Source: Candidatus Zixiibacteriota bacterium
GTDB lineage: Bacteria > UBP14 > UBA6098 > JBKHBT01
Direction: 5' to 3'
Length of the DNA: 64,000 nucleotides
NCBI GenBank assembly: GCA_046542255.1
Contig: JBKHBT010000005.1
Coordinates: 13,593-77,592 of the forward strand
Part shown: piece after piece, positions 23,533-50,085 of the stretch
Layout: every line of letters begins with the position of its first letter
Position numbering within the stretch: position 1 is the stretch's first letter
Made by a program: the position numbers and the translations under genes
Notes under the pieces: model-generated
Told to the model about the DNA's origin: nothing
Seen by the model: only the letters and a program-made list of their open reading frames with translations
Database searches by the model: none

Positions 23533-23574
23533 TAATGTTATATGATGAAGTTGGATAAATACTGCGGAGGCATA

Positions 23575-26500
23575 GTGAAGCGTTTTTTTTTATTTTTGAT
23601 ATTCATCGGCCTTTGTTTTGGTTGGACTGGCGGGCCGGATGATTTTGGGCATATTTTTGCCGATGTCGATGAGCCAGAGGTCAGCTACTTATGGTTTCCG
23701 ACAGATAGTGCAGAAGTTATATCTGGTTGGATCGGCCTTCCATCAGAAGGTACTGCTACAAGGGTATTTACCCCATTTCCAATTACTTTCTATGGTAATA
23801 GCTATGATTCTTTTATGGTCAGTACAAATGGTTTTATTACATTTAGTTCGGGGTATCCAGAATCATCGACAAATGTCGAATTGCCAACTGTTTACACGCC
23901 TAATAATCTTGTTGCGGCCTACTGGGACAAGCTTGCATTCGGCGATGATACAAGAGTTTTCTACGAAACCGTTGGAACAGCACCAAATCGTAAATTCATT
24001 ATAACATGGAAGAATATATATATTTTTCGAGAATTCTATGTTCATGGCGATTATTTGACTCCAAATACATTTCAGATAATTTTCTTCGAAAAGCCGGGTG
24101 AGACGAATATAAAAATTCAATATCAGGAGATGGGAAGTCTCGAAAACCCTCATGGCACAAGCGCAACAGTTGGCATAGAAAATGTCGATGGTACCGATGG
24201 ACTCACTTATTGCCATGAAGATTCGATAATATTTTCTGAACATGCTGTCTATTTCACGACCGGTTTCTACGATAATGATATCGAAGTATTATCAATTTAT
24301 TTTCCTGATACTCTTTTGACTTCTGATGCTATTATTCCATTTGTGGAGCTGGGAAATACGGGTTTTGAAACAGCAAGGGATATATGGACTGATTTGATTA
24401 TTTTTGATTCAGAAAGAGATACTGTCTATACCGATTCATTCTATTTGGATTCTTTGCCTACTGGAAGAGCCGATACATTAGAATTTGGCGGCTGGGAACC
24501 AACACTCGAGATGCATCCCGGTGAATGCATTATTAGTGCCAGGGCAAATATGCCTGCCGATGAAAATCCATGGAATGACTCTTTATCAAATAGCTTTTTT
24601 CTTTTGGCATATGATTTAGAAGTCAAAGAGATTCTTGTGAATTCTGTTGTTTTCCCGGGTTCTTTTGTCGATATTGCCGCTATTGTTCGTAATAATGGTG
24701 GTGAAGATGCCAGTTTCGAATTTTTCGGTGAAATATTAAAAGACAGCATAATTATCTTCAGGGATTCGCTTTCTTTCGAGCTATCTTCAGAAGAGATAGG
24801 TACTCTTTCTTTAGGAAGCTGGATACCCGATACCGGCTCATATCAACTTGAATTCAATGTGAATACGTCAAATGACCAGGTAAGAGAAAACGATACCCTC
24901 AGAAAGACAATTGCCTCCTATGAACATTTCGGCCACGGCGGCCCGGATGCTTATGGCTATGAATGGTTCGATAGCTGGTATGACCCGGCTTTTGCATATA
25001 CACCAATCGATATTTCCGATGCTACTATCATTGGTACATTTGAAGGTTATGAAATAACAACGTCTATCGCGCTTCCTTTTGAATTCCCATTTTATGGCGA
25101 TGAATACACAACGGTTTATCTTAGCAGCAATGGCTTTTTGTCCTTTTCGCCACTCATATATGGCGCACATACAAGAAATCAAGAAATTCCCAATCCCGGT
25201 ATGCCCGATGGTATTATTGCTGCTCTCTGGGATGGCCTTTATATCTATGACCCTTATGGAACTTTTGGCGTATATACGAAATCCGAAGAGGATAGATTCC
25301 ATATCATTTTTAGTAATGTAACATTTTTCAGTACTCCCGAGTATTATATTACCTTCGAGATTGTACTCTATCAATCTGGCGATATTGTCTTAAATTACGA
25401 AGATATCGAAACTCCAGATACTTACCATACAATGGGAAGAAGTGCTACTGTCGGTATAGAAAATGAGGATGGCGATACAGGCCTGCAATATCTTTACAAT
25501 GGCTCTCCTCCGGGCAATTCTATTATGAATCATACTTCGATAACATTTACAAGAACCGGTGCGCCACCGGATACATTGCCACCTGTTATATTACCATTTG
25601 TTACTGCTGATGAAATCTATCTTTTTGATGATTCCAGCTCGATTAATCTATCAGCACGAATATATGATATTAGGTCGGAAGTAGCCAGCGAATCCCTATA
25701 TTATAGCTTCGATGGCGAAGATTTCAGCAAAGGTGCAGATAGCTTCGAAGAGCCTGATATCTATAATTTCTTAATCGATGGCCTCGACACCAATGGAACC
25801 CTTTCTGGAGAATATTATGCAAGAGATACCGAAGGTAATATTGCCAGGCAAACTTTTGAAATCGAGATAATTCATCCAATCGAAGATACCGAGCCGCCAA
25901 ATATCTATGCCAGTATCGATGATACATTATGGCTTATCCCCGGCTCCGATGGCTTTACTTATGTCAATGCCGAAATAACAGATACTATGGGACTAATCGA
26001 ATATGATTCTCTCTATGCCATAACAGCTGATTCGACTTCAGTATTCACGAATGATTCTATTGTAGATGGAAGGTTTTATCACTATAGCATAGGGCCTTTC
26101 GAAGCTGGTGAAATGGTAGGGCTTCAATTTGTTGCTATCGATACTGCTGGCAATATTACCGAGTTTCCTCATGCTGGCCATCTGGATTTTGTGGCGTGGG
26201 AGCAGCATCTTTTCGGGCCACTCAGCAGCGATTTTGCTCAATACTGGATGCTCGATGATCTCTATCAACCGGATGACGATTCAATTATGTCCGTTGTTCC
26301 GGAATATGTATGGATAGAAATCGACCCTGACTCTGGTGGAAGAGGAGTAGTCATCGAAGAAGCTCATACAGACTGGCTATCCGAGCCAATAGAATTCGCG
26401 AGCCTGAATTTCCCTTATTTTGATGAGTCTGAGCCGAGGAAAAGAAATATCCGCATATCATCCAATGGCTTTATTACTTTTGATACATTATATGATGGAA

Positions 26501-27204
26501 CGATGCCAGCGCCGGAGCCTTTACCGTCGGGAGCTTATCCGGCCTATACGATGGCGCTATATCATGCAGATTTCGAAATGGATGAGCAAAGCAGAATCAT
26601 TTTCCAGGAGGATGTTATCGAGCAGAGGATCATTGTTCAATGGCAAAATCTGGCATTTGACACTGGAGACACAATAATTCATAGCACATTCCAGGCAGTT
26701 TTGAAATGCAGTGAACCAGTTATCGGGGGATTTTACAATAATATCATTTATAATTACAAGAGAATTCATCCGCAGATTATTGAAAATATATCGATAGGTT
26801 TCCAGGATAGCTCTGGCTCGAAGGGAATAGCTTATCCAACTTCGCAAAATCCATTAGCGGCCAGAATGCCAGTGTCGGAAAGCTCGATTAGGATATTTAA
26901 TTCATCGTATGAGGAAATTCACGAAGCAAAACCGGTTTTGCCGAATCATTTCTATATTGCCGGCGCATACCCGAATCCATTTAATAGCACTACTAATATC
27001 GAAGTTTATTTGCCAGATGCAAATGTGATACATCTCGATATCATATCTACCGATGGAAAGTCTATTGAAAATATGGAATTAGAAGGCAGAAAAGGCAAAA
27101 ATACCATAAGTTGGCAGGCCAGTGGTATAGAGAGTGGTATCTATTTCGCCATGATCACTACCAATAAAAAAACAGAGAGTATTAAATTGCTATTTGTTAA
27201 ATAG
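23575..27204 (+). CDS. Large secreted protein with three nidogen(NIDO)-like modules, CARDB-like domains and T9SS type A-like C-terminal domain
   Basis: GTG start with GGAGG RBS, signal peptide; repeats GGPDxxG...PF.FYG..Y...VSTNGF.TF...GIEN.DG..GL; C-terminal YPNPFN...SGIYFA...KLLFVK. Confidence 0.75.
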   Translation: MKRFFLFLIFIGLCFGWTGGPDDFGHIFADVDEPEVSYLWFPTDSAEVISGWIGLPSEGTATRVFTPFPITFYGNSYDSFMVSTNGFITFSSGYPESSTNVELPTVYTPNNLVAAYWDKLAFGDDTRVFYETVGTAPNRKFIITWKNIYIFREFYVHGDYLTPNTFQIIFFEKPGETNIKIQYQEMGSLENPHGTSATVGIENVDGTDGLTYCHEDSIIFSEHAVYFTTGFYDNDIEVLSIYFPDTLLTSDAIIPFVELGNTGFETARDIWTDLIIFDSERDTVYTDSFYLDSLPTGRADTLEFGGWEPTLEMHPGECIISARANMPADENPWNDSLSNSFFLLAYDLEVKEILVNSVVFPGSFVDIAAIVRNNGGEDASFEFFGEILKDSIIIFRDSLSFELSSEEIGTLSLGSWIPDTGSYQLEFNVNTSNDQVRENDTLRKTIASYEHFGHGGPDAYGYEWFDSWYDPAFAYTPIDISDATIIGTFEGYEITTSIALPFEFPFYGDEYTTVYLSSNGFLSFSPLIYGAHTRNQEIPNPGMPDGIIAALWDGLYIYDPYGTFGVYTKSEEDRFHIIFSNVTFFSTPEYYITFEIVLYQSGDIVLNYEDIETPDTYHTMGRSATVGIENEDGDTGLQYLYNGSPPGNSIMNHTSITFTRTGAPPDTLPPVILPFVTADEIYLFDDSSSINLSARIYDIRSEVASESLYYSFDGEDFSKGADSFEEPDIYNFLIDGLDTNGTLSGEYYARDTEGNIARQTFEIEIIHPIEDTEPPNIYASIDDTLWLIPGSDGFTYVNAEITDTMGLIEYDSLYAITADSTSVFTNDSIVDGRFYHYSIGPFEAGEMVGLQFVAIDTAGNITEFPHAGHLDFVAWEQHLFGPLSSDFAQYWMLDDLYQPDDDSIMSVVPEYVWIEIDPDSGGRGVVIEEAHTDWLSEPIEFASLNFPYFDESEPRKRNIRISSNGFITFDTLYDGTMPAPEPLPSGAYPAYTMALYHADFEMDEQSRIIFQEDVIEQRIIVQWQNLAFDTGDTIIHSTFQAVLKCSEPVIGGFYNNIIYNYKRIHPQIIENISIGFQDSSGSKGIAYPTSQNPLAARMPVSESSIRIFNSSYEEIHEAKPVLPNHFYIAGAYPNPFNSTTNIEVYLPDANVIHLDIISTDGKSIENMELEGRKGKNTISWQASGIESGIYFAMITTNKKTESIKLLFVK

Positions 27205-32510: not shown

Positions 32511-33280
32511 CTATCTTGGGCATAAAGATATCGTTTCGGGTTCAATTTCCATTATAGAAAATTCTGTATCGATGGCTTCTGCTGTAAACTCACCAATTGA
32601 TATCTCCACCGGGAAAGTTTCAATTTCTAAATCATCCACATGAAATTCTGATTCTCGTCCACAGCATGAATTGCCAAATTCATCTGTTTTGATCGCGTAG
32701 ATACTTTTCTTTATCCCATAATTTGCTTTACTGCCTGTTATTCCGTATCCGCTTTCCTGAATCGATACCGAGAATGATTTTTCATAGTCATTTTCAGATA
32801 TAAAATCACTATTATAGGTTTTGGAAAAGCCTAATGTTCCCGAACTATCGAAACTTGCCAGGAAAATGTCTCCATAAGTATCTCCCAAAATTAAGAAGTT
32901 TTCATCATCGATAATTTCGATTTTATTCGATGAATAAATTCTCTCGATATCAGAGTATTTACTCCACATTGGATCCAATGTATTGGAAAATTTCATGAGT
33001 ATAATATTAATAATAGTATCCGCTGCGACAGATGGATTAGATTGGCCTGCGGCAATAATTGCGTTTTCATTTAATAGGCCGATATCTAGTATCTGGATTT
33101 CTGGCAAATGGCCAATTCCGATGTTATTTAGCAAGGTGAATTCAGAATCGAATTTACTAATAAGCATTCTACTAGACTCGAGATCGGAAATAATCTTTCC
33201 CAAAATATATATATTCCCATCAGCATCCATTTCCATATCGATACCCTTAAAATTCAGTTCAAAAGCATCGATAATATCAC
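32511..33280 (-). pseudogene. 3' remnant of a beta-propeller-like secreted protein gene, 5' end replaced by the hairpin element
   Basis: Propeller-type repeats (DADGNIYILG, KFSNTLDPMWSKY, FLASFDSSGTLGFSKTY, YAIKTDEFGN). The only ATG start (33308) lies inside repeat copy B. Confidence 0.6.
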
Positions 33281-33386
33281 CAGACAATGCGCTGTTCCGC
33301 ATTGTCATACTTCTTAGGCTAAAACACCCTTAAAGCTGTTGGCTTAAATGGATTCTGCATTATTTATTGATGTCCTTTTCGGCCAA
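33281..33386 (+). repeat. ~107-bp hairpin element, copy B
   Basis: CAGACAATGCG-CTGTTC-CGCATTGTCATACTTCTTAGGCTAAAACACCCTTAAAGC...TCGGCCAA. The right boundary is approximate. Confidence 0.8.
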
Positions 33387-34576: not shown

Positions 34577-34607
34577 AAAAAAAGCGGCCTTTTTAGGGGC
34601 CGCTTTT
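34577..34607 (-). terminator. Intrinsic terminator (possibly bidirectional) after the 875-aa gene
   Basis: GCGGCC-loop-GGCCGC followed by T7 on the minus strand and T4 on the plus strand. Confidence 0.8.
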
Positions 34608-34640: not shown

Positions 34641-37268
34641 TTATAGCTTTTCAATTGTTACGCTGCCGTGACCAGTATTAACTCCTGAAGTATTGGATTG
34701 GCTGGTTCCGCTATTATAAGAACCGCCGCCTCCGGCTATGGGTAGATTTGAATCATTACCATAGGAAGAGCCACCACCAGAGTATCCACCGCCACCACCA
34801 GCACCATGATATGATGTTGAATTTCTAGAAGATGAGCCGCCACCACCAAAACCGCCAACAGCAGAAGGTGTAGCCCAGGAGTTTGATCCGCCTTCTCCTC
34901 CATCAACAAATGCTTGAGGAGCTGGGGATGGATTTCCCGAGCCACCGTCCGTTAATAAGCCAGCACCTCCATCTGTAGTCTGGTTACTGTAACTTCCGCC
35001 ATTTCCTGATGTACCTCCTGTTCCATTATAACCGTAGCTACCCGTACCATCATGACCTGATGTTCCAGTTTGTCCATTGCTACCTGCTCCAGAAATTTCT
35101 GCACCGCCACCACCACCTGCTATTATTAATGGATTATTACTAATATCAGTAACAAAACTACCGCCTCCTCCAGAAAAGTCATATCTTGAACTTGTAAGTG
35201 CTGTTCCTTCCTGTCCGACTAGAATCTTTAATATTTCGCCTTCAGTTAAACTAAAATCACCGATTATTTCAGCTCCGAGACCACTACTACTGCCACCGCC
35301 TTGTGCACCAAGTACAGTAATTCTATAAGTTCCATCTGCCGGGACTGTCCACTCCTGAATGCCAGTTGTTGACATATTGAAATATGCATCGTCTTCGTCC
35401 CAGCTCGTAGTATATTCACTCCTGCATTGGGAAAGTGAAGGGCCCGTTCTACCAGTTGCGCCACAATTTGTAAAAGTATGAGATTCAAAATCATATAAAC
35501 CTGCGTTCACTGTCAATGTAGCCGCTGCTGATGTATCAGCTGGTGAACATGTGCCTGTAACTATGCATCGATATCGATAACCATCCATAGATTCTGTTGT
35601 ACTACCTGTGGTATAACTGCTTCCTCCAGTGCCGATATTGCTCCAACTCGAGCCTCCATCTGTGCTTTGTCGCCATTGATATGTGAGTCCATCGCCAGTT
35701 GCTGTAACACTGAAACTTGCTGCATCGCCTTCATCGACAGTAGCATCAGAAGGATTTGCTGTTATGCTAGGCGAATAGAGAATATTTACACTAAGACATC
35801 TATCCGCAGATGTTCCGCAGATACTGCTTGCATTAACACAAACATCACCGCTGGATGACCCGAAATCGACATCTATCGTATTTGTTCCATCACCAGAAAC
35901 AATTGTAGCGCCTGATGGTACCGACCATGTATAATCTGTTGCTTCAGAAACCTCTGATATAGAATATGTAACTCCAGTTGCGCCAGAGCAAACATCGCTC
36001 AAGCCTGAGATTGTACCCGGAGTCGATGGCGTAGCTGTCATTTCCACAGCAAGGCATTCTGGGTCAGAGATTCCGCATGAATTTTCGGTACGAACACAAA
36101 CCTCACCTGGTGAAGTTGCGAAATTTACTGTAATCGTTGGTGTAGATGAGCCTGAAACGATAGACGCTCCCGGTGGTACTGTCCAGGAATAATCAGTAGC
36201 ATCCGGTACAGTTGCTATATTATATGAAATGCCAGTTTCATCTTCACAAACAAGAGTAGGGCCTGAAATTGAGCCGGGAGAAGTCGGCCGGTTTATTGTT
36301 ACTGCTTTACAAAAACTTGAAGATTCACCACATTCATTTAAGGCTGATACGCAAACATCACCATCGGTATTACCAAAAATAATATGTATAGAATTAGTTC
36401 CGCTACCGGTGAGAATGCTCGAACCAGATGGAAATGTCCATCTATAATAAGTTGCATTAGAAATAGGTAAGGTAGAATATGAAGTTCCTGGTTCACCTGA
36501 GCAAGCGAGAGAATTTCCATCTATAAAAGAAGGAGCATCGGGGGGAGATGAACATCCACTGCCGCAATCACCTGTGAATCTAACAACAATCAATCCGGTA
36601 TCGCCTTCCATAGTTTCGGTGATTTCTGTACCGGAACCCGGTTCCAAACGGATTCTGCCCACCATTGCACTATCTCTGTCAGAACCTTCGATAGATACTA
36701 TACCACCAGAACCACCATCATCTACACTTAAAATCTCGCTCGTGCCGTCATCACGAATATAATAAAGCTCATTATCAGTGTCATTTACAAAAATCTTGCC
36801 GTATCCTGTTGAAGATGTCGGTGGAGAGACTTGTTTCTCCATGCTCATAGCCCCCTCGACAGTCACCGTTTCATTAGGATCGCCGGCGCCGACAACCATT
36901 CTATCAGAACGGACAGCAATATCATTGCCAGTCTCGCCGATTATAAGGCCCATATCCATCTCATCCATTGGCTCGGATTCACGGCGGAGACTTGTCGATA
37001 CAGCGATACGTCCAGAACCATATCTGTCGCCATCGAGAAATATCTCGACATAGACAATTTCCTCTTCAAAACTATGTCTGCGCACTAATTGAAGAGGGTC
37101 TGGAACTATACTTCCGTCAACTACTGTAACTTCGGTTGTATGGCTCCAAAGAAGGCTACCACCTGTTTCAGAATCATAGACCTTAATATCCATTGCTTCA
37201 AAATCTGCAGATATCAAAACAGATATTAAAACCAAACTTAGGATTAAAATATTATTTTTCCTTTTCAT
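34641..37268 (-). CDS. Secreted fibre-like protein: tail-fibre-type N-terminus, 3 PKD-like repeats, Ig-like domain, C-terminal ALK/LTK-like glycine-rich domain
   Basis: Signal peptide; VYDSETGGSLLWS head; three C-x...YxWxxPxG...GxVCV...CG repeats; FSVTATGDGLTYQW...YRYRCIVT Ig; FTNCGATGRTGP...GIQEWTVPADGTYRI...ILVGQEG...PLIIAGGGGG...GHGSVTIEKL. Confidence 0.85.
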   Translation of the reverse strand: MKRKNNILILSLVLISVLISADFEAMDIKVYDSETGGSLLWSHTTEVTVVDGSIVPDPLQLVRRHSFEEEIVYVEIFLDGDRYGSGRIAVSTSLRRESEPMDEMDMGLIIGETGNDIAVRSDRMVVGAGDPNETVTVEGAMSMEKQVSPPTSSTGYGKIFVNDTDNELYYIRDDGTSEILSVDDGGSGGIVSIEGSDRDSAMVGRIRLEPGSGTEITETMEGDTGLIVVRFTGDCGSGCSSPPDAPSFIDGNSLACSGEPGTSYSTLPISNATYYRWTFPSGSSILTGSGTNSIHIIFGNTDGDVCVSALNECGESSSFCKAVTINRPTSPGSISGPTLVCEDETGISYNIATVPDATDYSWTVPPGASIVSGSSTPTITVNFATSPGEVCVRTENSCGISDPECLAVEMTATPSTPGTISGLSDVCSGATGVTYSISEVSEATDYTWSVPSGATIVSGDGTNTIDVDFGSSSGDVCVNASSICGTSADRCLSVNILYSPSITANPSDATVDEGDAASFSVTATGDGLTYQWRQSTDGGSSWSNIGTGGSSYTTGSTTESMDGYRYRCIVTGTCSPADTSAAATLTVNAGLYDFESHTFTNCGATGRTGPSLSQCRSEYTTSWDEDDAYFNMSTTGIQEWTVPADGTYRITVLGAQGGGSSSGLGAEIIGDFSLTEGEILKILVGQEGTALTSSRYDFSGGGGSFVTDISNNPLIIAGGGGGAEISGAGSNGQTGTSGHDGTGSYGYNGTGGTSGNGGSYSNQTTDGGAGLLTDGGSGNPSPAPQAFVDGGEGGSNSWATPSAVGGFGGGGSSSRNSTSYHGAGGGGGYSGGGSSYGNDSNLPIAGGGGSYNSGTSQSNTSGVNTGHGSVTIEKL

Positions 37269-37433
37269 CCTTCTCCTTTATTTTTCATCATTCAACTCGA
37301 AATTAATTAAAATAATTAAATAATCAAGTAAATATATATTTTTAAGCAAACTTAATAGAATCTTAAATTTCAACAAGTACAAACAAGACGTTATTACAGG
37401 AGCCATACTGCAAGACAATAGATTTCATACAAT

Positions 37434-37459
37434 AAAAAAGGCGGCCAAAAGGCCGCCTT
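37434..37459 (-). terminator. Intrinsic terminator after the 1907-aa gene
   Basis: Minus strand GGCGGCC-TTTT-GGCCGCC followed by T6. Confidence 0.8.
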
Positions 37460-37506
37460 AAATATTTTTAATAGGCTTTTACACGATATTTAGGTCAATC
37501 ATGCTT

Positions 37507-40500
37507 CTATTTTAGATTGCCTTTTCTATCATATTTATCAAGATCGATGAAGTGATCTGTTGGCTTTTCAGGCCTATTAATTTCGTCGGGTGATTTCTGG
37601 GCTTCGTCAAGTCGTTTCCCTGAGAGCCTGAAGCTAAACCGGGCATCCTGCTTGCCCTGGATTGCTTTAACAGTTAGAAGCGAACCATCGACATTTGCCA
37701 TGAGGATAGCTTCATCCTGTGCAGTTACCAATGGTATAACTGTGCCTTCAGCAACACTGCGCCAGAATATCCATAGGTCAGAGCCTTCTGGCTGCTGAGC
37801 AAGATCGACAGTAAATTTGCCATTTTCGAGCTGGCCCTCGCTGATAATATCTATCCAGAAGCCGATATTTTCGGCCATCCATGTAACATAGAGCTGGCCA
37901 TCGATTTGCATAGTTGGGTCAACTTTATTGGCATGGACAACATCGACATATAAATCATAACTACCCAGATTAACATCTTCAGTTGCGCCAGTGTATGGGA
38001 CATAATTGCCTGTTAGTGTACTCGATTCAGCATATCTGCCATCTAAATCCACAGCTACGTCACCACCGACATCCTGTTGCAGCGTAAGAACACCACTACC
38101 TGTATTGAAAATTAAATCTGTAACTGTTTCATTGCCAATGACATGGTCTGCATCATTAACCTCGTCTGTGAATGAAGTGCCGGAGCCACCATCTGAGATT
38201 TCAATTGAAACGGTGCTTCCTGAGCGAGATGATGAAAGGTTCTGAATTTCATTTGCTGGATCTGCATCTGCATCATTAACATTGTCAGTTCCAGGAGCCC
38301 ATGATGAACCATTGTATTTTAATACTTGATTACTTGCTGGTCCAGTAGATGATACCGTGACACCCTGCAAGCCATCGACTGTCGGGTTTGGATATGTGCC
38401 ATTTAAGTCGCCGCCTGCTGTCCCAGTTGGCGGTGCGCCGATTACAGAGAGATTATCGGAACCGTCTATTGTTATCGAAGTCCCATCGACGTTTACATCG
38501 ATGTGGTTTGTCTCAACGCTAATTCCTTCGCCATCGCCAATCTCTAAGTTTGCAGAAAAGCCATTACCTAAAGCATCATCAGATATACCACCAGTTAATC
38601 CATTACCCGCAGTGATTGTTGCGGTCTCATTTCCTTGCACGGCCGTACCGGCTGTAATGCCATAGTTTACATTAACGCCAGAACCATCAACTGTAATACC
38701 AGTGCCTGCATCGACAGAAACAGAGGCTGCCGAAGAGCCATCATATGTGAAATCATTAATACCATTGCCATCTGTGAGGTTGGATAAGCTGGCAGATTCA
38801 AGGCTGGAAATCGCTGTAGCATTGGCCTCTATCTGAGCATCCAATTCATCCAGGCCTGTATGAACATTGCCTGCACTAATATAAGTAAAATCTGTTACCG
38901 TTGTTAATGGAACTTCAGTATCAACCTGGTCATCATGATCAGAATCTGCTGCATTAACCCATTCGGTTCCATCATATTTAAGAACATGGCCTGAAGCTAA
39001 ACCGCCAATTGTAACATCATTTAAATCTCCGAGATTATCATTGGTAATGTCATCTTCTTGAACCGGAATAACTACATCATAACTTGAAGAGCCTTCAGTA
39101 ATTCTGAGAGTATTTGGTTCTCCAGAAGGTTCCCATGTAAGTGTTGATATTGCTTCATTAGTTGTACTATTATCTATATTGAATGTATTCCAATCAGAAG
39201 AAGTAAGGTAACCATCATTAGAACCATCAGCAGCAATCATTGTGATTTCAACATCGCCAGTAGTCGGTGAGATTGTTAGAGGCGTTGTTCCAGTTTCAGA
39301 AACCGAAGTTACTCCGCCGATTGCACTTGCATCGACCAATGTCCAACTGGAGCCATTCCATTGCCATATTTCTCCAGATGTTGAACCATCGGCAAGTTCT
39401 GCTGCGCCAACGGCACCTGCTACAATATCGCCGGAAGCAGTAAGATCATTGGCATCGCTAAAATCATTTATATTTCCCGATGCATCGAGGGCATTGGCTG
39501 CGCCCCAATTAACCGAAAGAGCGGACCCAGCACCAGCGCCATCACCATCGAGGCTTCCATCGGTTTCTACAACCTGTGTTCCCCAGTTATCGCCGACTCC
39601 GCCAGATGAGAAATCTGCATCGACTAAAGTCCATGCACTTCCATCCCATCCATAAACTTTACTAACTCCAGATGGGCCATCTGAAAGACCAAGAGGAGAT
39701 GATGATGAACCATCGCCTTCAATTTCTGACTGAGTTGAAATCGATGTCAAATAACCTTCATCGGCATGATTCCCCCAGCCAGCTACTGTTGTAAAAGTAT
39801 AATGATCGTCTGAAGAAAGATAGCCATCGTTACTATTTGTGGCTTCTGGAATTGTTACCGGAGAGCCGGATGAGCCATCGCCAGTTATAGGAGCTGCTGT
39901 ATTGACTGAGGAAGAAATTGCTGAACCATCGACTGTAACCTGTCCGGAAGCATCGACAGATACACTGATGTCGCCGGAGCCTGTAAATGTAATCTCATCC
40001 GTACTGGATGATGCATTATAGGTAGTTGAACCATCCGTAATAGAAGAAAAGATATCCTGGATTTCATTAGTAGGGTCGGCATCGTCATCATCGACATCGA
40101 TAATTACAGTGCCGCCACCATCGCTAAGTGTGATTTCATGTCCAGTTCCATCGATTGATAGTGTCTGAAGTTCATTTGAAGGGTCAGCATCGTCATCATC
40201 GACTAATGCTGAAAGATCGACATCTTGATTGGAGCCATCTTCGATACCGATTGTTAAGGTTGTTCCCGTAAGGCCAGAGCCCTGAATATTTTGGTCATCA
40301 GTTCCAGCATTATCGAGCACAGAGAGATCGACTGTTTCGCTTGTACCGTCTTCAATACCAATTGTCAATGTATTTGTTCCGCTATCGAATCCCGAACCAG
40401 AGATATTCTGGTCATCCGTATTATCCATAAAAGGTGATAAATCGACACCAGACCCATCAGTTATATTTAGTGTATTACCAGAAAGGGAAAGGTCTTGTTC

Positions 40501-43230
40501 ATCCGTATTGACTTCAGAAATATCGATTGTTCCACCATCTTCAATTGTAATTTCATTTGTAGTAGCATTGTAAGAAATTATCTGGTCATCTGTACCAACG
40601 GCATCGGGTGCTATCCATTCGAAATTACTACCGGTGCTAGCAAGTATATTGCCAGCGGTTCCACCTTCATTAAGATTATTCTGAAGCTGTCCATAGATCT
40701 TTGTATTTCCATTTTCTCTTACAGTGAAAATTTCATCTGCCGTAGCATCGTGTTTGATATTGAATGTGCTACCAGTTCCAGAGCCATCCGAGTCGATAAT
40801 TATATCGATACCGCTTGTTCCGCTAATATCGAAATTATTATCTGCACTAAATGTTCTGCCATCACCAGTAAGTGTGAGATTGCCATCGAATACACCATTG
40901 CCATCTGCCCAAAGGTTGCCGCCTTCAGTTACATTGAAGACTTCTGTGTTGTGCCCATTGTGAATACGGAAACTTGCAGAACCGCTGTTGTCATTATCCA
41001 GTCGAACTTTAAGATCATGCGTGCTACTAAGTTGTAACATCGAGCTTGTTCCTGGGTTACCATAAATGGTGCCAGAAGCAACCTCAAGATCTGAAGCTAT
41101 ATTAAGAATTCCATCACCATCGGTGATCGATGTACCACCAGCATCATTGCCGGATGTTAGAACTTCGGCAAGAGTTTGATCATCTGTTCCAGCATTATCC
41201 AATTCAGCGAGGTCGATATCCCAAATAGTGCCGGCTTCGGTAATGCTGAGTGTATGTGTACCATGTGTATAGCTTGCAGCAGTAATTATTTCATTATCAT
41301 CTGCCATATCACCGTCTGCAGCGATATGTTCATCTATTGCGGCCTGGACATTTGTTGCAGTTAGGTCAGATGTTGTATTATCGTATGGTACATCTGCGGC
41401 ATCGACCTGATCGGCTCCAGAACCCCAGTCTATATCGGAAGCTTGAACCGCGTCGTCTGTAATTGTTGGGTTTGGATATGTTCCAGTAAGGTCTCCGCCT
41501 GCTGCCTCACCATCATCGATGTAATTTGTGCTTACCCAGGCAGCATCTACTGCTATATCATCACTATTGACTGTAATACCAGTTCCTGCGCCGATATCTA
41601 AACTGATATCTGTATCGGCACCAGGAAGTATATCATCTGCGCCACCTGTTAAACCATCACCTGCGACCAGATCGCCATTTTGTGTTAGAGAAACATCCAC
41701 GGTACCAGTAGTCGGTGATACGACAATTGGTGCAGTTCCCGTAACTTCATTGACTCCACCGATAACTGATGGACTAGTCCACTCAAAGCCTCCGGATGCA
41801 TTGTCATAACTCAAAACATAATTATCTTCGGATGCTGTTCCATGAGATAGCATCTTAAGATCGATCTCTTCGATAGTTCCATCTAAGATTTCAGTAGATT
41901 CTATTGTTTGGCCGAGAACAGAGATTTCACCATTTGAATTTGGCAAGGTATATTCGACATCGGTCGCGAAAGAAGCATTCTGGAAAGTTGCGAATGTAGA
42001 TGCACCAGTAGGAATTCTAATACTTCCATCATCATCGATGCGTAGATTTTCATTTGCTACCCACGCACTTGTTCCACTGTCCCAATGTAGGGCAGCTCCG
42101 TCATTGGTAGCCGAAGGTAATACATCGCCATAGGCTTCATCGATTTCGCCTATTGCTTCATAGACATTGTCGATACCACCAACAATATTGTAACCATCAC
42201 CACCGGGATCGGGGAATGTTGTGGGTGCAGTTGCACCAACAGCCTCAGATAAACTAACAAGGCCCCAGGGCGAAGCACCTAAACCAATTTGGTAATCACC
42301 GCTAGCTTCAACGGCTACTTCTGCATTCTCTCCAACACGAAATATACCATTGTCATCACCATCATGAATCATAAAATTCTCTATTGCAGCATCCGTGTCT
42401 CTGTCTAATTGTATATGAACACCTTGATTAGAGTAAATCCTGGCATCGCTATTAATCCATAAGTCGCCTTCGCTTCGTATTGCAGGGCCGGCTCCAGCAT
42501 TTTCTGCATGTATAGCAGCGAAATTATCCGGGTCTTGCTGATTCACATATAGCCCTCTATAGCCTGTTCCAGAAGATTCATCATTTGGTATGGTAATAGT
42601 AACAGGGCCTGAATCATCGATATTTATTGTTTCACCAGCATTATAGGCATCATTCAATGATATCGATGATGACACTGTCGTTATTGCAGCATCGAGATCG
42701 GCTAAGGCATCATGTACATTTTCTGATTCTGTGTCAATATATGAAGATGATACAAACTCGGTGAGTGGAACTTCTGTATCATTGGGGTCTCCACCACCGC
42801 CGCCTGTGTGGACATTGATCAGAACCTTGAATTCTGAGCCTCCTGAATTCTCTAATGCTGTACCTAAAACGAATCCATCGGGATTATTGTCTAAATCTGT
42901 GACTTTGCCCAAAGGCGCAGTAACGATTTTATCGCCGGGTGCAATTGCAATAGACCCATATTCATCAGAAGGCCTTACCGTAACAATACCACTTGCTGCG
43001 ACAAGATATCTATCCGATGCACCATCTACCGAAGAGACAGAAATAATAATTCCAACAGGAATATCATCTGCGCCACAAGTATCGATAACAAATGCACTTT
43101 CCAGTTTGACAACCGCACCGAGGTCTAAATCATAAGTATCGCTTCCGGTAAAAGGATTTCGCATTATCTGGCCAAATGCTAAAGAGGCCAGAAGTATCAA
43201 AATAAATATAATTACTCTTGAATTCTTCAT
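37507..43230 (-). CDS. Giant secreted acidic tail-fibre-like repeat protein (putative trimeric adhesin/filament)
   Basis: Signal peptide; D/G/T/S-rich; repeats GGDLxGTYPNPT (x2), DADPxNE[LI]Q (x3), DDQ[NT][IL] (x4), W.W.GS.WTLVDA (x2); distinct N- and C-terminal globular domains. Confidence 0.8.
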   Translation of the reverse strand: MKNSRVIIFILILLASLAFGQIMRNPFTGSDTYDLDLGAVVKLESAFVIDTCGADDIPVGIIISVSSVDGASDRYLVAASGIVTVRPSDEYGSIAIAPGDKIVTAPLGKVTDLDNNPDGFVLGTALENSGGSEFKVLINVHTGGGGGDPNDTEVPLTEFVSSSYIDTESENVHDALADLDAAITTVSSSISLNDAYNAGETINIDDSGPVTITIPNDESSGTGYRGLYVNQQDPDNFAAIHAENAGAGPAIRSEGDLWINSDARIYSNQGVHIQLDRDTDAAIENFMIHDGDDNGIFRVGENAEVAVEASGDYQIGLGASPWGLVSLSEAVGATAPTTFPDPGGDGYNIVGGIDNVYEAIGEIDEAYGDVLPSATNDGAALHWDSGTSAWVANENLRIDDDGSIRIPTGASTFATFQNASFATDVEYTLPNSNGEISVLGQTIESTEILDGTIEEIDLKMLSHGTASEDNYVLSYDNASGGFEWTSPSVIGGVNEVTGTAPIVVSPTTGTVDVSLTQNGDLVAGDGLTGGADDILPGADTDISLDIGAGTGITVNSDDIAVDAAWVSTNYIDDGEAAGGDLTGTYPNPTITDDAVQASDIDWGSGADQVDAADVPYDNTTSDLTATNVQAAIDEHIAADGDMADDNEIITAASYTHGTHTLSITEAGTIWDIDLAELDNAGTDDQTLAEVLTSGNDAGGTSITDGDGILNIASDLEVASGTIYGNPGTSSMLQLSSTHDLKVRLDNDNSGSASFRIHNGHNTEVFNVTEGGNLWADGNGVFDGNLTLTGDGRTFSADNNFDISGTSGIDIIIDSDGSGTGSTFNIKHDATADEIFTVRENGNTKIYGQLQNNLNEGGTAGNILASTGSNFEWIAPDAVGTDDQIISYNATTNEITIEDGGTIDISEVNTDEQDLSLSGNTLNITDGSGVDLSPFMDNTDDQNISGSGFDSGTNTLTIGIEDGTSETVDLSVLDNAGTDDQNIQGSGLTGTTLTIGIEDGSNQDVDLSALVDDDDADPSNELQTLSIDGTGHEITLSDGGGTVIIDVDDDDADPTNEIQDIFSSITDGSTTYNASSSTDEITFTGSGDISVSVDASGQVTVDGSAISSSVNTAAPITGDGSSGSPVTIPEATNSNDGYLSSDDHYTFTTVAGWGNHADEGYLTSISTQSEIEGDGSSSSPLGLSDGPSGVSKVYGWDGSAWTLVDADFSSGGVGDNWGTQVVETDGSLDGDGAGAGSALSVNWGAANALDASGNINDFSDANDLTASGDIVAGAVGAAELADGSTSGEIWQWNGSSWTLVDASAIGGVTSVSETGTTPLTISPTTGDVEITMIAADGSNDGYLTSSDWNTFNIDNSTTNEAISTLTWEPSGEPNTLRITEGSSSYDVVIPVQEDDITNDNLGDLNDVTIGGLASGHVLKYDGTEWVNAADSDHDDQVDTEVPLTTVTDFTYISAGNVHTGLDELDAQIEANATAISSLESASLSNLTDGNGINDFTYDGSSAASVSVDAGTGITVDGSGVNVNYGITAGTAVQGNETATITAGNGLTGGISDDALGNGFSANLEIGDGEGISVETNHIDVNVDGTSITIDGSDNLSVIGAPPTGTAGGDLNGTYPNPTVDGLQGVTVSSTGPASNQVLKYNGSSWAPGTDNVNDADADPANEIQNLSSSRSGSTVSIEISDGGSGTSFTDEVNDADHVIGNETVTDLIFNTGSGVLTLQQDVGGDVAVDLDGRYAESSTLTGNYVPYTGATEDVNLGSYDLYVDVVHANKVDPTMQIDGQLYVTWMAENIGFWIDIISEGQLENGKFTVDLAQQPEGSDLWIFWRSVAEGTVIPLVTAQDEAILMANVDGSLLTVKAIQGKQDARFSFRLSGKRLDEAQKSPDEINRPEKPTDHFIDLDKYDRKGNLK
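40071..40520 (-). repeat. Intragenic tandem peptide repeats (DDQNISGSG / DDDDADPxNE[LI]Q)
   Basis: Near-duplicate DNA, e.g. gggtcggcatcgtcatcatcgac (~40072) and gggtcagcatcgtcatcatcgac (~40181). Confidence 0.7.
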
Positions 43231-43880
43231 TTCTTGCTCCCTGTATTATTGATTTCTATTATCTGAAGATTTCTTTCATTAACCAAAGCCCTGTAACTCG
43301 AAGCATCGATGCGATATTCTATCGAGTATTGGTGAGATCCTTCGGTGGGTGTATCGGTATAGTTAAGCGCAATTGTCATATCATGATAAAATGCAGTATT
43401 AGTCTGAAGATTTACAGTACGAGAAGTAAGTTTTTTATCATCTCTGACAAGGCGAATAGTAACTTCAGGCCCTAAATAACCCGGTACCTTGTCAGATATA
43501 TTGCAACTAAAATTGATAAAAATAATACTATTGTTATCAGAATTTTGATCGATTGTAATTTCCATGTCATTTAATTTTGTCCATGAAGTTTCCGAAAGAA
43601 TCACATCGTCATCTGCATTTACCCAATCTGCAAAGCCAGTAAATAGATTTTGAAGATTTCTGGTATTATCGAATGTCATGTCGATTGTTTCTTTCGATGT
43701 AGAAATCGGTGAATCCTCGAATCGCAAATCTCGATTGAATTCATTTTGGGAAGTACCAATTTCAATATTATTCAATTGTGTGGCATAACTTGCCAAAACA
43801 ATCAATAAGATTAAGACATTTAGATATTTAGTTCTCAATTTAACCACCTTTTTATACAATTCAGAAAGTTTCTTTTTCAT
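43227..43880 (-). CDS. Hypothetical exported protein with beta-sandwich-like C-terminus, translationally coupled to the giant fibre gene
   Basis: Hydrophobic N-terminal segment (LNVLILLIVLASYA); its stop overlaps the next start (ATGA at 43227-43230). Confidence 0.7.
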   Translation of the reverse strand: MKKKLSELYKKVVKLRTKYLNVLILLIVLASYATQLNNIEIGTSQNEFNRDLRFEDSPISTSKETIDMTFDNTRNLQNLFTGFADWVNADDDVILSETSWTKLNDMEITIDQNSDNNSIIFINFSCNISDKVPGYLGPEVTIRLVRDDKKLTSRTVNLQTNTAFYHDMTIALNYTDTPTEGSHQYSIEYRIDASSYRALVNERNLQIIEINNTGSKK

Positions 43881-46014: not shown

Positions 46015-49000
46015 TCATTTGATATAAAGCGCCCGTGAAATTATATGCTTCTTTCCATCATTTGCAGATATAATATAGACCCCCGAAGGAAGGTTCTTAT
46101 CAGGATTCCAGACAATGCTGCTTGATTTTCCAGTATTTAGTTCTGTAACTATCCTACCATTGTGATCACGGATTTGGATATTTGCTGAAATGCCGGTTTC
46201 TATGCTAATAGCAGAATTGAATGGATTCGGTGATGTTATCAATAACAGTTGTTCTGGTTTTTCTGCTTTGGCTTCTTGGACTGCTTCGCCTGGATTCCAA
46301 TTTACGCCCCAGTCATATAGATTCGGTTCTTCTTCTCCATCTGCAAAGATATCGGCTCTAAGCCTGATTGTATCGATTTCTGTGGGTAATAAAGCGAGAT
46401 TAATTATTCCTGTTTCACCATCGGTAGTCGCACTTGCAAAGTCGCCCCAGACGCCGCCAGTTTTCACCTGGACAGTTATTATGATCGAATCACCAGCTTC
46501 CTGTGTCCAAAAGGCTCTGTCGAAACCATCGCCTTCTGGATTATCGCTCGATATAATCGGATTTGAAACGATGTATCCATAGTTATCGCCGCTTGTGCCG
46601 ACTTTATAATCATCGTAGAATGTCTGGCAGTAGAATGGGTCTGTCCAGCCGAGATTGAATGTGCCAATTCGAAGCTCTTCGATATTCTCTGGTGCTCCAC
46701 CTGTAAATGGATACGGGCCAAAAACATCTGTTCCATCGATTGTGCAATATATCTCATCTGCCTCACAGTCGAAATCGAGGCGATAGTGATGCCATTCAGC
46801 CGGGTCTATCTCGACAAGATTATGCCTTGATACGCCATCCCACAGAGCCACATAGCCCTCGCGATTGTAAACCTGGCTTTTTCTTTCATCATCTTTGTAC
46901 AATGTGATAATAAATGACTGATCATCTGAATCGGATGTGAGGGACCAACCTTCGATATATCCTGCTTCAAGTGGCTCGAAATTGATATTTACCCATGACA
47001 TTTCTCTCCAGCTATCATCATGTATAAATAAAGACTGATTAGCGGAATGATAGATATCGCGGCTTAGTGAGTAGAATTCTCCCCATGTAGTCCAGAATGA
47101 TTCAAATTCTTCTACAGAATCATATCTCTCGAAATCCTCATCGATAAGTATCATTTCGGCACGAAGAGTCATCTGGTCATGGTCTTCTACGGCATCATAA
47201 TCTTCCGCATTTGTAAATTGCTGGCCAGTAGTCTGATACCATGAAGCTACCGAGTCATCGCTGCCTATCGTAAAGCTCCTTGGATGAGTCCAATTGCTAT
47301 ATGTAATACCGTCATAGGCTCTAACCCGCCACCAGTATGTGCCATCTTCCAGCGGTGTTTCGAAATTGAAAGATATCGCCTCGCCAGTTCCTTCTTCGAC
47401 CGGGAAAGCGCCGCCAGTGAAACCAATAGCACTTTCATCGGTTCTAAAGATAGCGATCGGATCGCCAAAATCGGCGCTATCATCATATTCTAAGACGAAA
47501 TGCAAATCATGGCCATCGCCATCTTCTGGAACCTGCCAGATTAATTCAGGTTGTGGATCGTCTATTCTGGCATTGTCGAAAAGCCAGTTGGAATATATCG
47601 GCGCTTCCGGCCTGTCATTTGGGATTCCTTCGGAAATATCGCCCGACATTACAAGTGCAAATCTCTGTGGGCTATGAGCAATTCTGGAAGCTTCGACAGT
47701 AACCACAATCAATGCGCCCGGGACAGGATCGAGCCAAACCACCTCATCACGGTTTATTCTATCGGCCGAACCTCCAGTAATTGACCTTGCACCCGATGAA
47801 GCAAATACATTGCCTCGATAGACATTGTCTTCGATAGACACAATAAGATCCAGGTCATTTACGCCGGGTGTTCCCGCTGCCGGAGAACCGGGATAATCGC
47901 TATATGAGAGTACAATTTTGATTGGCTGGGTTTCGGATTCACCGCATTGGACATAGAAATCACGTATATCTCCAGTAGAATTGAAACCTGTTATCTCATC
48001 ATGTACCATTAGCTTTCTTTCATCGGTGCCATAATCATCATCGAAATACATGCAATCATCGAGGACAACTCTTCCCCAGCCCTGGCCATTCGAAGGAGCA
48101 TGTTGCACTCCGTCATCGCCAATTTCGCTTATTGTGTATCTTCCTGTCATATTTCTTGTGCCATTTATAAGCATAGCCTTCATGAGCGCGCCAGAAGGAA
48201 ACATTCTATTTTCGATTTGTGGGCTTCCTGTCGGATAGTAGCCTTCCATGAAATATTGTCTTATAAGGGCAGTTAATCCTGCGGCTGTTGGGCAAGCCAT
48301 CGAAGTACCGCCCATTTTGCGAATGCTCGTATGTCCGCCTGAGCCGCCATCGACATTGTCTGCGCTCCAGATATTCCATCCACCAGGAACCGAGATATTT
48401 GGTTTGAGCAAACCTTCATCGGTTGGGCCATGTGAAGAAAATGGAGCCATATTTTCTGGGTCTGCACCATCACCGGAGCCATGTGCGCTCCAATCGCTGC
48501 CACCACTTCCAAAACCAGTCTCGGTAGCTCCCACAGAGACTATATTCTTGGAGCAATTGTATGTAGCAACACGCGCAGGCGATGAGCCATTATTATCATT
48601 TCCAGCAGCAAATAAAATGATGAAATCCTGGTAGAAATACATAAATTCATCGCATTCTTGAGCATTGGAATTATAATAGTTTGGCCGCGAACTACCATAG
48701 GAATTAGAATGAATAAAAGCGCCACAATTTCTAGCATATTGGAACATTGTATTCATATCGGTCGGCGTATAGATTCCCGATGTACCATCAGCACCATCGG
48801 TGACAACCAGTCGGCATAAAGGTGCCATTCCATCGGCGGCATCATATATACCGTCCATTGGGTCATTGGCGTAATTGTTTCCACCTATCGATCCACCAAC
48901 GTGGGTTCCGTGGCCATGCATTTCTTCATCGATATCATCGAAATCGCCCATATCGATTCCGCCGTAATTATAGGCTCTAATTTTGCGATGGTAAGTATCT

Positions 49001-50085
49001 CCAGGCGTGGACCATCCAACCTGTTTGGGAACCTCGACTCCAGCATCGTAGAAAAAAGCAGAATTAGTATCCAGGCCGCTATCGCAGAATCCTACAATCT
49101 GATCCTGGCCATAAATTCCTCTTCGATAAACCGGCACATGTTCATAATCGACAACCATCTGGGCAGAAAGATCGGCGCCGCCGATACCATGACGCATTCC
49201 CTCGAAATTATAGGATTGTGTAATCCACCTCGACCAGTCATTAACGGGATAATCGGGATAGTAGCGTTCCACCCATTCTGTACCTTCGTAATTGGCGGCA
49301 GTGATAGCAATTTCATTGGCCATTTTCGGTTGAATACGCAGTTTTATAAATTCGTGATGAGCTCCTTTTGTCGAGTCTATTATTATTGCGCCTTGCTGCG
49401 AAAGCAACTCGGCAAGAGCTTGATAATCATCATCCTGGAATACCTGTATTTTAATGCCGATAAGGCCATCGTCTTCATCGCTTTCTTGTTTGTTTTGGGC
49501 AAGAGCTGGCAGAACTCTCAATGATGGTACAAGCGGCCCAGTCCATACCACTTGCTCCAAAGACTCGACATCTTCGAGTGATTTTTTAGGAAGCCTATAA
49601 ATCCAGGCATCATTGGGGACATAGTAAAATCGCGCAGGATAAAAATCACCGGAGACTCTGGAAGCAATATCGAGAATTTCATCCAAATCTTCCTGAGCAT
49701 ATCCGGGAGCCAGCTTAACTATATAGTAACCGAAATCTCTTTCAAAGCCATTGTATCCTAGTTCATCTATGAAAGTAGGGTCGAATAGCTTATTTTGTTC
49801 TTTTATATTGTATGCACCAGCACGGAACCAGATAATATTATCATCAGAAAGCATTTGATTGGTAATATTTACTGTCTTTGGATTTGCCAGATCTTTTATA
49901 TTGCCAAAAGATAATTTTGCGATTAATATCATGGCAATACCAAGCACGATAATAAGGACGTGGCGAAGGCTGTAACCATAAATATTTTCTATTATTTTTG
50001 CGTGAGAAATATAACGTTTCCCACCATTTGAATAGCTTTTTTCTTTTGAAGATAAAATTGCATTTTGATCGAAATCCTGCTTCAT
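46015..50085 (-). CDS. Secreted S8 subtilase (KP-43/TagC-like) with T9SS type A-like C-terminal domain
   Basis: Triad GFCDSG (Asp), HGHGTHVGG (His), GGTSMACP (Ser); FAAGND; QGWGRV; beta-sandwich tail; TSPNPFN...SGVYII...ALYIK. The true start may be downstream of 50085. Confidence 0.9.
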   Translation of the reverse strand: MKQDFDQNAILSSKEKSYSNGGKRYISHAKIIENIYGYSLRHVLIIVLGIAMILIAKLSFGNIKDLANPKTVNITNQMLSDDNIIWFRAGAYNIKEQNKLFDPTFIDELGYNGFERDFGYYIVKLAPGYAQEDLDEILDIASRVSGDFYPARFYYVPNDAWIYRLPKKSLEDVESLEQVVWTGPLVPSLRVLPALAQNKQESDEDDGLIGIKIQVFQDDDYQALAELLSQQGAIIIDSTKGAHHEFIKLRIQPKMANEIAITAANYEGTEWVERYYPDYPVNDWSRWITQSYNFEGMRHGIGGADLSAQMVVDYEHVPVYRRGIYGQDQIVGFCDSGLDTNSAFFYDAGVEVPKQVGWSTPGDTYHRKIRAYNYGGIDMGDFDDIDEEMHGHGTHVGGSIGGNNYANDPMDGIYDAADGMAPLCRLVVTDGADGTSGIYTPTDMNTMFQYARNCGAFIHSNSYGSSRPNYYNSNAQECDEFMYFYQDFIILFAAGNDNNGSSPARVATYNCSKNIVSVGATETGFGSGGSDWSAHGSGDGADPENMAPFSSHGPTDEGLLKPNISVPGGWNIWSADNVDGGSGGHTSIRKMGGTSMACPTAAGLTALIRQYFMEGYYPTGSPQIENRMFPSGALMKAMLINGTRNMTGRYTISEIGDDGVQHAPSNGQGWGRVVLDDCMYFDDDYGTDERKLMVHDEITGFNSTGDIRDFYVQCGESETQPIKIVLSYSDYPGSPAAGTPGVNDLDLIVSIEDNVYRGNVFASSGARSITGGSADRINRDEVVWLDPVPGALIVVTVEASRIAHSPQRFALVMSGDISEGIPNDRPEAPIYSNWLFDNARIDDPQPELIWQVPEDGDGHDLHFVLEYDDSADFGDPIAIFRTDESAIGFTGGAFPVEEGTGEAISFNFETPLEDGTYWWRVRAYDGITYSNWTHPRSFTIGSDDSVASWYQTTGQQFTNAEDYDAVEDHDQMTLRAEMILIDEDFERYDSVEEFESFWTTWGEFYSLSRDIYHSANQSLFIHDDSWREMSWVNINFEPLEAGYIEGWSLTSDSDDQSFIITLYKDDERKSQVYNREGYVALWDGVSRHNLVEIDPAEWHHYRLDFDCEADEIYCTIDGTDVFGPYPFTGGAPENIEELRIGTFNLGWTDPFYCQTFYDDYKVGTSGDNYGYIVSNPIISSDNPEGDGFDRAFWTQEAGDSIIITVQVKTGGVWGDFASATTDGETGIINLALLPTEIDTIRLRADIFADGEEEPNLYDWGVNWNPGEAVQEAKAEKPEQLLLITSPNPFNSAISIETGISANIQIRDHNGRIVTELNTGKSSSIVWNPDKNLPSGVYIISANDGKKHIISRALYIK

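Follow-up and report, generated by a model that had tools for sequence, protein, structure and literature searches.

What exported, fibre-like proteins of very large size are doing in a bacterial chromosome with no phage around them is the question raised by three neighbouring genes in a 64,000-nucleotide stretch of a Candidatus Zixiibacteriota genome (assembly GCA_046542255.1, contig JBKHBT010000005.1, positions 13,593 to 77,592), the whole of which we refer to as the window. The three co-oriented open reading frames (ORFs) lie on the minus strand and code for proteins of 217 aa (P0001; 43227-43880), 1907 aa (P0002, the exported fibre; 37507-43230) and 875 aa (P0003; 34641-37268), the same lengths and positions as in an initial annotation of this DNA. 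That annotation had described them as a three-gene cluster of phage-tail-fibre-like proteins, forming a surface system built from domesticated fibre modules. We lean towards a narrower reading, in which the first two genes make up an operon for a Sec-exported, probably homotrimeric fibre, extracellular or held at the surface, that would resemble the mosaic adhesive trimer (MAT) fibres of Bdellovibrio and be accompanied by a free copy of a tip domain.

P0001 and P0002 are encoded by a conserved, translationally coupled two-gene operon. Their genes share 4 nt (AAG AAA TGA / ATG AAG, i.e. ATGA), an overlap already pointed out in the initial annotation and present in the sequence. At three other loci (L006, L032 and L033), standalone P0001 orthologues of 171-193 aa lie directly upstream of fibres that begin with the same N-terminal domain as P0002, named Ndom_a, with a 14-nt gap between the two genes in L006 and a 3-nt gap in L033. 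Counting the window, the small gene is found directly upstream of an Ndom_a fibre in 4/4 loci that have it. A sigma-70-like promoter candidate, TTGACT-17-TATAAT, stands 5' of the P0001 gene (44095-44123, minus strand), this being a pattern match from a consensus scan (11/12 matches). Behind P0002 lies an intrinsic terminator, AAGGCGGCC-TTTT-GGCCGCCTT, whose 9-bp GCGGCC stem is followed by a T-run (37438-37459, minus strand).

Sec-type N-terminal signal peptides are visible on all three proteins, as had been claimed; both the signal peptides and their cleavage sites were judged by eye from the sequence. Cleavage would occur at MKNSRVIIFILILLASLAFG|Q in P0002 and at ...VLISVLISA|D in P0003, while P0001 has a signal peptide with a long charged n-region, for which a start at TTG (codon 15) would look more typical. 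The first mature residue is Gln in all of the Ndom_a proteins (P0002, P0014, P0055, P0062, P0063 and P0064; AFG|Q, LFA|Q, AYC|Q and so on), and Gln after cleavage fits the 'Q-rule' of Bacteroidetes, which concerns N-terminal pyroglutamate.

P0002 itself, with a net charge of -270, can be divided into a putative base, a strongly acidic repeat stalk of ~1,580 aa and a strongly conserved end domain that is predicted to form a beta-sandwich. The base, Ndom_a (residues 21-148, 128 aa; 42787-43170, minus strand), resembles phage cement proteins and head-fibre bases and is conserved in at least six proteins, directly after the signal peptide. The stalk (residues 149-1724; 38059-42786, minus strand) is rich in G, D, T and S, has nearly no K or R, and contains TDDQ/NELQ repeats, W-x-GS-x-W, two GDL-x-GTYPNP and three NV(H/Q)xA(L/I) motifs. 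The end domain, named CtermA1 (residues 1725-1907; 37510-38058, minus strand), finishes in a charged tail. A single true orthologue of P0002 was found, the 1901-aa P0014 of GCA_015657875.1, and identity between the two proteins is 42% in the base, 29% in the stalk and 78% over the last 183 aa, which correspond to CtermA1.

The stalk repeats scored high against 2,000-3,000-aa 'beta strand repeat-containing proteins' of Flavobacteriaceae, whose ends differ from those of P0002. These giant proteins (P0004-P0012, P0027, P0042 and P0050) have conserved ends of their own, N-terminal TTVTLEDQCNCEVLSGTAV... and C-terminal ...YNSLINVVFVVK; since the ends are their own and the TDDQ/NELQ repeats are held in common with P0002, stalk repeats seem to be mobile among fibre families that otherwise have no relationship. 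CtermA1 was found in 15/26 genomes of the phylum, at 1-3 copies each (3 in the genome of the window), invariably placed at the C-terminus of a long ORF; the ORFs bearing it range from 127 to 2,240 aa as seen, many of them truncated at contig ends. Its AlphaFold2 (AF2) model shows a beta-sandwich core at low confidence (predicted local distance difference test, pLDDT, 54), and Foldseek returned weak matches to phage tailspike C-terminal sandwiches, none reaching E 1e-3, which we treat as a weak lead only. A single beta-sandwich shared by CtermA1, the 'FLIDHP...' end of P0054 and P0065, a small protein encoded downstream of P0055, was considered and dropped (hhalign probabilities <1%). The idea of a self-cleaving module at an invariant Asp-Pro just before the CtermA1 sandwich found no supporting match and is speculation only.

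The description of these proteins as phage-tail-fibre-like did not survive database searches. P0002 had no match in Pfam, NCBIfam or PDB sequences and no significant one in PHROG; P0001 likewise matched nothing in Pfam or PDB sequences, nothing significantly in PHROG and nothing usable in NCBIfam, and neither protein had a tblastn match in 50,697 phage genomes. Sequence searches of the PDB with our alignments A1 and A2 returned no match, nor did alignment A1 find any in IMG/VR. Word-based homologue searches with the N-terminal 310 aa of P0002 and with P0055, a shorter protein of the same genome, each returned the query alone. The phage relatives that were eventually found are parts of the head.

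P0055 (302 aa, contig C22) has Ndom_a fused almost directly to tipA2, the domain that makes up most of P0001, and a model of it was used for fold comparison. Calculated with AF2 from a 25-row alignment, this model has a pLDDT of 78.6 overall, about 90 in the base and about 80 in the tip. The base is modelled as all-beta, and its Foldseek matches in the PDB are cement or decoration proteins of Pam3, HFTV1, Sf11 and T1, together with the N base of phi29 gp8.5; the range against these cement and head-fibre structures is E 4e-4 to 1e-3 with a template modelling (TM) score of 0.52-0.69, the phi29 gp8.5 N base (6QYY) standing at E 5e-4 and TM 0.63. The Ndom_a sequence profile also matched 6QYY in the PDB, at E 0.007, independently of the structure model. 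When the model was compared with viral models (BFVD, Foldseek), 75 matches were obtained at E <= 1e-3, DUF2190 proteins among them, including phage proteins aligned over >280 columns, which would span both domains. The tip of P0055 matched TNF-alpha, RANKL, EDA and TL1A at E 6e-3 to 2e-2 and TM about 0.45, and P0001 is, by this modelling, probably a TNF/C1q-like jelly roll. In the genome, P0055 lies at L009:8501-9409 (minus strand); it is exported, and after it come genes for a 172-aa secreted protein of unassigned family and for a sugar transferase, while a divergent extracytoplasmic function (ECF) sigma/anti-sigma pair lies upstream.

A phage contig found by scanning metagenomes with the P0001 family (L141; the same phage is present as three IMG/VR genomes, L145, L146 and L148) carries relatives of both modules in its head module, where the order is terminase, two small ORFs, P0067, portal, two ORFs, P0068 and major capsid protein. 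P0067 (168 aa; L141 3764-4270) is a tipA2-like, TNF-like small protein, and P0068 (142 aa; L141 7045-7473) is a cement protein encoded before the major capsid gene, scoring 23.3 bits against Phage_cement_2 (PF09956) where the cut-off is 24; neither has a signal peptide. Profile comparison gave an hhalign probability of 94.5% (E 8e-8) between Ndom_a and P0068 and of 95.4% (E 2e-8) between the P0001 family and P0067, and these two results indicate that the fibre modules are related to phage head proteins, not to tail proteins. The two modules co-occur as separate small proteins in one phage lineage, and in one lineage only. On profiles and models together, Ndom_a and the phage capsid cement proteins are homologous, and the domain also resembles the base of the phi29 head fibre, even though Pfam PF09956 matched neither P0002 nor P0055. 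What stands of the initial idea of a surface system made from domesticated fibre modules is that the proteins are exported and fibre-like, with phage-related modules in a non-phage context; the source of the modules is the head, not tail fibres.

P0001 consists of a signal peptide, an unconserved linker of ~50 aa and a standalone tipA2 domain (about residues 95-212; 43245-43598, minus strand) that is homologous to the C-terminal domain of P0055 (E 5e-5). An exhaustive search of 1.8 billion representative proteins found 5 relatives only, and identity of P0001 to its orthologues is no more than 32-36%, the domain being conserved and the linker not. Homologues of tipA2 occur as C-terminal tips of fibres in 16/26 genomes of the phylum, and in genomes of the phylum other than that of the window the domain is always the C-terminal part of a larger protein, ending in ...VEIKR-like strands. 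It is met together with Ndom_a in several ways besides P0055. A protein of G023:C24 holds Ndom_a, a GxT collagen-like stalk and tipA2 within one 538-aa ORF, and just upstream of the gene pair in L006 and L032 there is a mid-size protein made of Ndom_a, a stalk and a C-terminal tipA2 (P0064 and, in L006, a 592-aa protein).

Cement proteins and TNF domains are trimers. Because trimeric fold classes would lie at both ends and a sister protein has a collagen-like stalk, the fibre is probably a homotrimer. In the reading that we favour, the 128-aa base of P0002 would descend from phage capsid cement or decoration proteins and have the same fold as the phi29 head-fibre base, and the protein would be exported via Sec, assemble as a homotrimer and be displayed outside the cell as an adhesin-like fibre that binds something. 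P0001 would be a signal peptide and a loose linker followed by a TNF/C1q-like jelly-roll head of the kind that sister proteins fuse to the base directly or via a stalk. Its trimer would dock on the fibre without a covalent link, the cement-like base trimer being the likeliest site, and so add a second, fast-evolving binding head. From the sequence comparisons, docking somewhere on the fibre is probable; docking on the base specifically is a good deal more tentative, and we would sooner doubt it than expect it.

The window proteins are not isolated in their genome. A census made by scanning the genome with home-made profiles built from few sequences found about 27 proteins that start with a second type of N-terminal domain (Ndom_b), 2 with Ndom_a, 3 with CtermA1 and 8 with glycine-rich tips; modular exported proteins of this family, to which all three window proteins belong, number at least 30. 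Ndom_b has the motif INYQGKLTD...YD..GG..W and occurs in records labelled Zixibacteria, Omnitrophota, Planctomycetia, WOR-3 and Patescibacteria, as well as in metagenome-assembled genomes (MAGs) labelled archaeal; a relationship between Ndom_a and Ndom_b was rejected (hhalign probability 0.3%). The N-domains combine with swappable ends, including CtermA1, tipA2 (TNF-like), a 'FLIDHP'-type end and others, and at least 12 genomes of the phylum have the family in multi-copy arrays with chromosomal surroundings.

In this family a second small secreted protein of ~220-250 aa, small_b, is encoded as a standalone gene directly upstream of an Ndom_b fibre gene at 5 loci (contigs C105, C65, C67, C8 and C97; e.g. 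L008:7537-8211 and L007:7643-8332), and is also the C-terminal domain of 6 large proteins. As far as the sequences tell, this layout is the same 'split tip' arrangement as that of P0001 and P0002, reached from unrelated sequence.

One array, in L045 (G024:C33:1-16632), has six co-oriented fibre genes in tandem, five of them with Ndom_a (one of these a weak match); the transcriptionally first is a 274-aa mini-fibre of Ndom_b plus tipA2, and the last carries CtermA1. Small gene pairs resembling toxin-antitoxin (TA) modules lie in gaps within fibre gene arrays of related genomes, at L040:1131-2190 and L045:4080-5183, and look, from their sequences, like HicAB and nucleotidyltransferase/HEPN. In L040 the upstream protein has an S74-like SDGRFK chaperone domain at its end.

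P0003 appears to be a separately transcribed neighbour, a terminator-bounded unit of its own and not a conserved partner of the operon. The spacer between P0002 and P0003 measures 238 nt and holds the strong terminator described above; a second intrinsic terminator, read from the sequence as a AAAGCGGCC...GGCCGCTTT stem followed by a T-run, stands after P0003 (about 34577-34607, minus strand), and in this the initial annotation, which had placed GCGGCC-stem terminators after both large genes, was right. In L006 the position of P0003 is taken by an unrelated 4445-aa MAM/Ig_7 protein, and at other CtermA1 loci various type IX secretion system (T9SS) cargo proteins or other fibres lie downstream. 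When synteny is compared, the link between the 217-aa and 1907-aa proteins is what remains of the proposed three-gene cluster, with 4/4 loci and a fused version; P0003 is replaced elsewhere.

The layout of P0003 is a signal peptide, a partial Ndom_b-like segment (hhalign 73% against Ndom_b), three PKD_6 domains (about residues 240-494; 35787-36551, minus strand; PF19408, E 3e-67), an Ig domain and an ALK/LTK-like TNFL plus glycine-rich domain (about residues 597-875; 34644-35480, minus strand). In a phmmer search of the PDB, the last ~280 aa matched ALK (7mzy, 7nwz and 7lrz; E about 1e-13) and LTK (7nx0; E 6e-9), and this C-terminal domain matched phrog_22713 at E 5e-37. The Ig region matched a 'tail protein' PHROG at E 1e-8, the only touch of a tail family among the three proteins. 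P0003 is a PKD/Ig rod with an ALK/LTK-like tip, drawn from the same genomic repertoire of modular exported adhesin-like proteins. That P0002 and P0003 bear alternative tips on related stalks, as had been suggested, is not borne out: their N-domains are unrelated, and an acidic repeat fibre stands against a PKD/Ig rod.

Around the three genes the window holds housekeeping functions (MutS2, Lon, HslVU, PGI, ParAB and MlaEFD) and an insertion sequence (IS) remnant, and the initial annotation was correct that phage structural genes are lacking: no capsid, terminase, sheath or tube gene was found in the 64 kb. A 265-aa ORF at 32511-33308 (minus strand), between a cytidylyltransferase gene and the IS remnant, has neither a Pfam match nor a signal peptide. 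A repeat search for an invertible tip-switching segment or shufflon gave no meaningful inverted or direct repeats. By Pfam, a type A or type B T9SS C-terminal domain is absent from P0001, P0002 and P0003 and present on four other proteins of the window, as the initial annotation had it: one with CHU_C (10118-12973) and three with Por_Secre_tail (13102-15129, 23542-27204 and 46015-50085). The genome (3.57 Mb) has at least 150 Por_Secre_tail (T9SS type A) matches, plus SprA, which would make the share of T9SS cargo very high; by coordinates, none of these type A tails falls in an ORF of the fibre family. CtermA1 as a variant T9SS tail was ruled out (hhalign probability 0.45% against the genome's own tails).

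Several observations weigh against our preferred reading of a MAT-like fibre with a free tip-domain copy. The TNF-like assignment of P0001 is made through the model of a paralogue, P0055, at the modest Foldseek values given above (E 6e-3 to 2e-2, TM about 0.45), and the Phage_cement_2 model had no match in a six-frame search of the genome at E <= 1. Fibres with Ndom_a and CtermA1 and no small tipA2 gene exist in L040 and L045, so that the partner is not obligatory. The argument from fusion is weak for modular fibres, base and tip being at opposite ends, and the strong conservation of CtermA1 opposes the usual 'variable tip' logic, so that either end of the fibre may be the attached one. Finally, with no T9SS tail on the fibre, no route across the outer membrane is evident from its sequence.

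Some of these points return in the rival explanations. P0001 might be a 'stalk-less fibre', a trimeric lectin-like head secreted independently, co-expressed with P0002 and never in contact with it; as a soluble factor it might then recognise the same ligand or a different one, or be a competitor of the fibres that bear tips. Its own signal peptide, the unconserved linker with no obvious docking peptide, the ordinary role of tipA2 as a C-terminal tip elsewhere and the Ndom_a/CtermA1 fibres that lack such a partner are all in keeping with this, but the tight translational coupling and the strict adjacency in 4/4 loci are not, and the upstream position of small_b at 5 more loci suggests a functional pairing rule; we regard an independent head as possible and yet unlikely. 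By analogy with phage tail-fibre assembly proteins, one could also imagine P0001 as a periplasmic assembly or export helper, a chaperone or carrier taking the tail-less fibre to or across the outer membrane. Such a helper would be translated in step with its fibre, as P0001 is, and some other route or helper is needed where fibres lack T9SS tails despite at least 150 type A tails and SprA. P0001 itself lacks a T9SS tail, however, and a TNF-like jelly roll is known as a binding head rather than as a chaperone fold. Phages encode their fibre chaperones downstream, not upstream, and tipA2 is a permanent C-terminal part of sister fibres; a helper role appears improbable to us.

A single three-gene surface-filament system, with P0001 as cap or adaptor for both large proteins and alternative tips on related stalks, seems more improbable still. 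The genes are indeed co-oriented and adjacent, P0003 comes from the same broad repertoire with its partial Ndom_b-like N-terminus, and a glycine-rich-tip protein also adjoins another CtermA1 fibre on contig C97; against this are the strong terminator and 238-nt spacer between P0002 and P0003, the MAM/Ig_7 protein of L006 and the various T9SS cargo found in that position at other loci, and the unrelated N-domains and stalks of P0002 and P0003. We give hardly any credence to a degraded prophage, tailocin or gene-transfer-agent-like element whose proteins would decorate a particle rather than the cell. What could be said for it is that a phage head module encodes homologues of the base domain as well as of the small protein, and that Foldseek gave 75 matches to viral models at E <= 1e-3. 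All members have Sec signal peptides, however, and the phage homologues P0067 and P0068 do not; there are 0 structural phage genes in 64 kb and no HK97-type capsid gene in the assembly (93% complete; models PF05065 and PF25209), no tblastn match of P0001 or P0002 in the phage genomes searched, and the multi-copy chromosomal arrays of at least 12 genomes of the phylum.

Within the preferred reading of a fibre with a free tip-domain copy, a bolder version can be formulated, which we think unlikely as a whole. The operon would re-create a phage-head contact, with a P0001 trimer sitting on the P0002 base as P0067 and P0068 may do on the capsid; the base would have been re-targeted from the capsid lattice to a lattice or receptor of the cell envelope, and the rule of placing the small gene upstream would serve to build two-headed or branched fibres. 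A tip-like small gene directly upstream of a fibre gene was found for two unrelated small families, at 6 loci.

The closest known system appears to be the MAT family, the likeness here being one of architecture only, with the N-domains compared by description. In MAT fibres of Bdellovibrio bacteriovorus a signal peptide precedes an invariant N-domain of ~130 aa, reported to be without structural homologues in the PDB, and the trimeric fibre bears swappable tips, glycan-binding TNF-like domains among them (Caulton et al. 2024, PMC10769870). The proteins described here are likewise chromosomal, multi-copy, phage-like fibres with a signal peptide, a beta-rich N-domain of ~130 aa, a long fibre and swappable C-terminal tips, which include TNF-like domains and novel beta-sandwiches, and S74-terminated relatives occur in the same phylum. 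They differ in that Ndom_a matches phage cement proteins whereas the MAT N-domain is reported to have no PDB homologue, which argues against common descent. At least two unrelated N-domain types are in use here, a tip-like protein with a gene of its own accompanies the fibre, the stalk gives a net charge of -270, and the host is an uncultured, T9SS-bearing bacterium of a candidate phylum.

Phage proteins offer partial parallels. With cement proteins (PF09956, formerly DUF2190) and phi29 gp8.5 (6QYY, 6QVK), P0002 shares the base fold and profile homology, and with gp8.5 also the order of base, fibre and distal domain; unlike them, it has a signal peptide, a cellular locus and no HK97-type capsid in the genome to bind, and its stalk measures about 1,600 aa where that of gp8.5 has about 170 aa. 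T2/S16-type gp38 and lambda Tfa are, like P0001, small proteins encoded beside a fibre gene and expected to act on the fibre. The P0001 gene, however, lies upstream and not downstream, its product, which has a signal peptide, gave no match to those families, and it copies a domain that other fibres carry covalently.

Among cellular proteins, collagen-stalked bacterial surface proteins with C1q/TNF heads exist, e.g. BclA of Bacillus. The sister protein of G023:C24, in which a GxT collagen-like stalk ends in a tipA2 jelly roll, is similar to these, whereas P0001 has no stalk and P0002 no collagen repeats. The last ~280 aa of P0003 match the TNFL and glycine-rich region of the ALK/LTK ectodomain by sequence; unlike in those receptors, the domain ends a bacterial PKD/Ig rod and is one of 8 such tips in the genome.

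Cell-surface fibres made from phage parts have so far been understood only in Bdellovibrio. The present results indicate that an uncultured, T9SS-rich candidate phylum carries dozens of modular fibres, and the presence of at least 30 large tail-less proteins in a cell that tags at least 150 others for T9SS raises the question of how such fibres are exported and retained at the surface. One lineage appears to have taken the anchoring base of its fibre from the phage head, from a cement protein as in head fibres, and not from the tail, and in this family a tip-like protein encoded by a gene of its own repeatedly accompanies a fibre gene.

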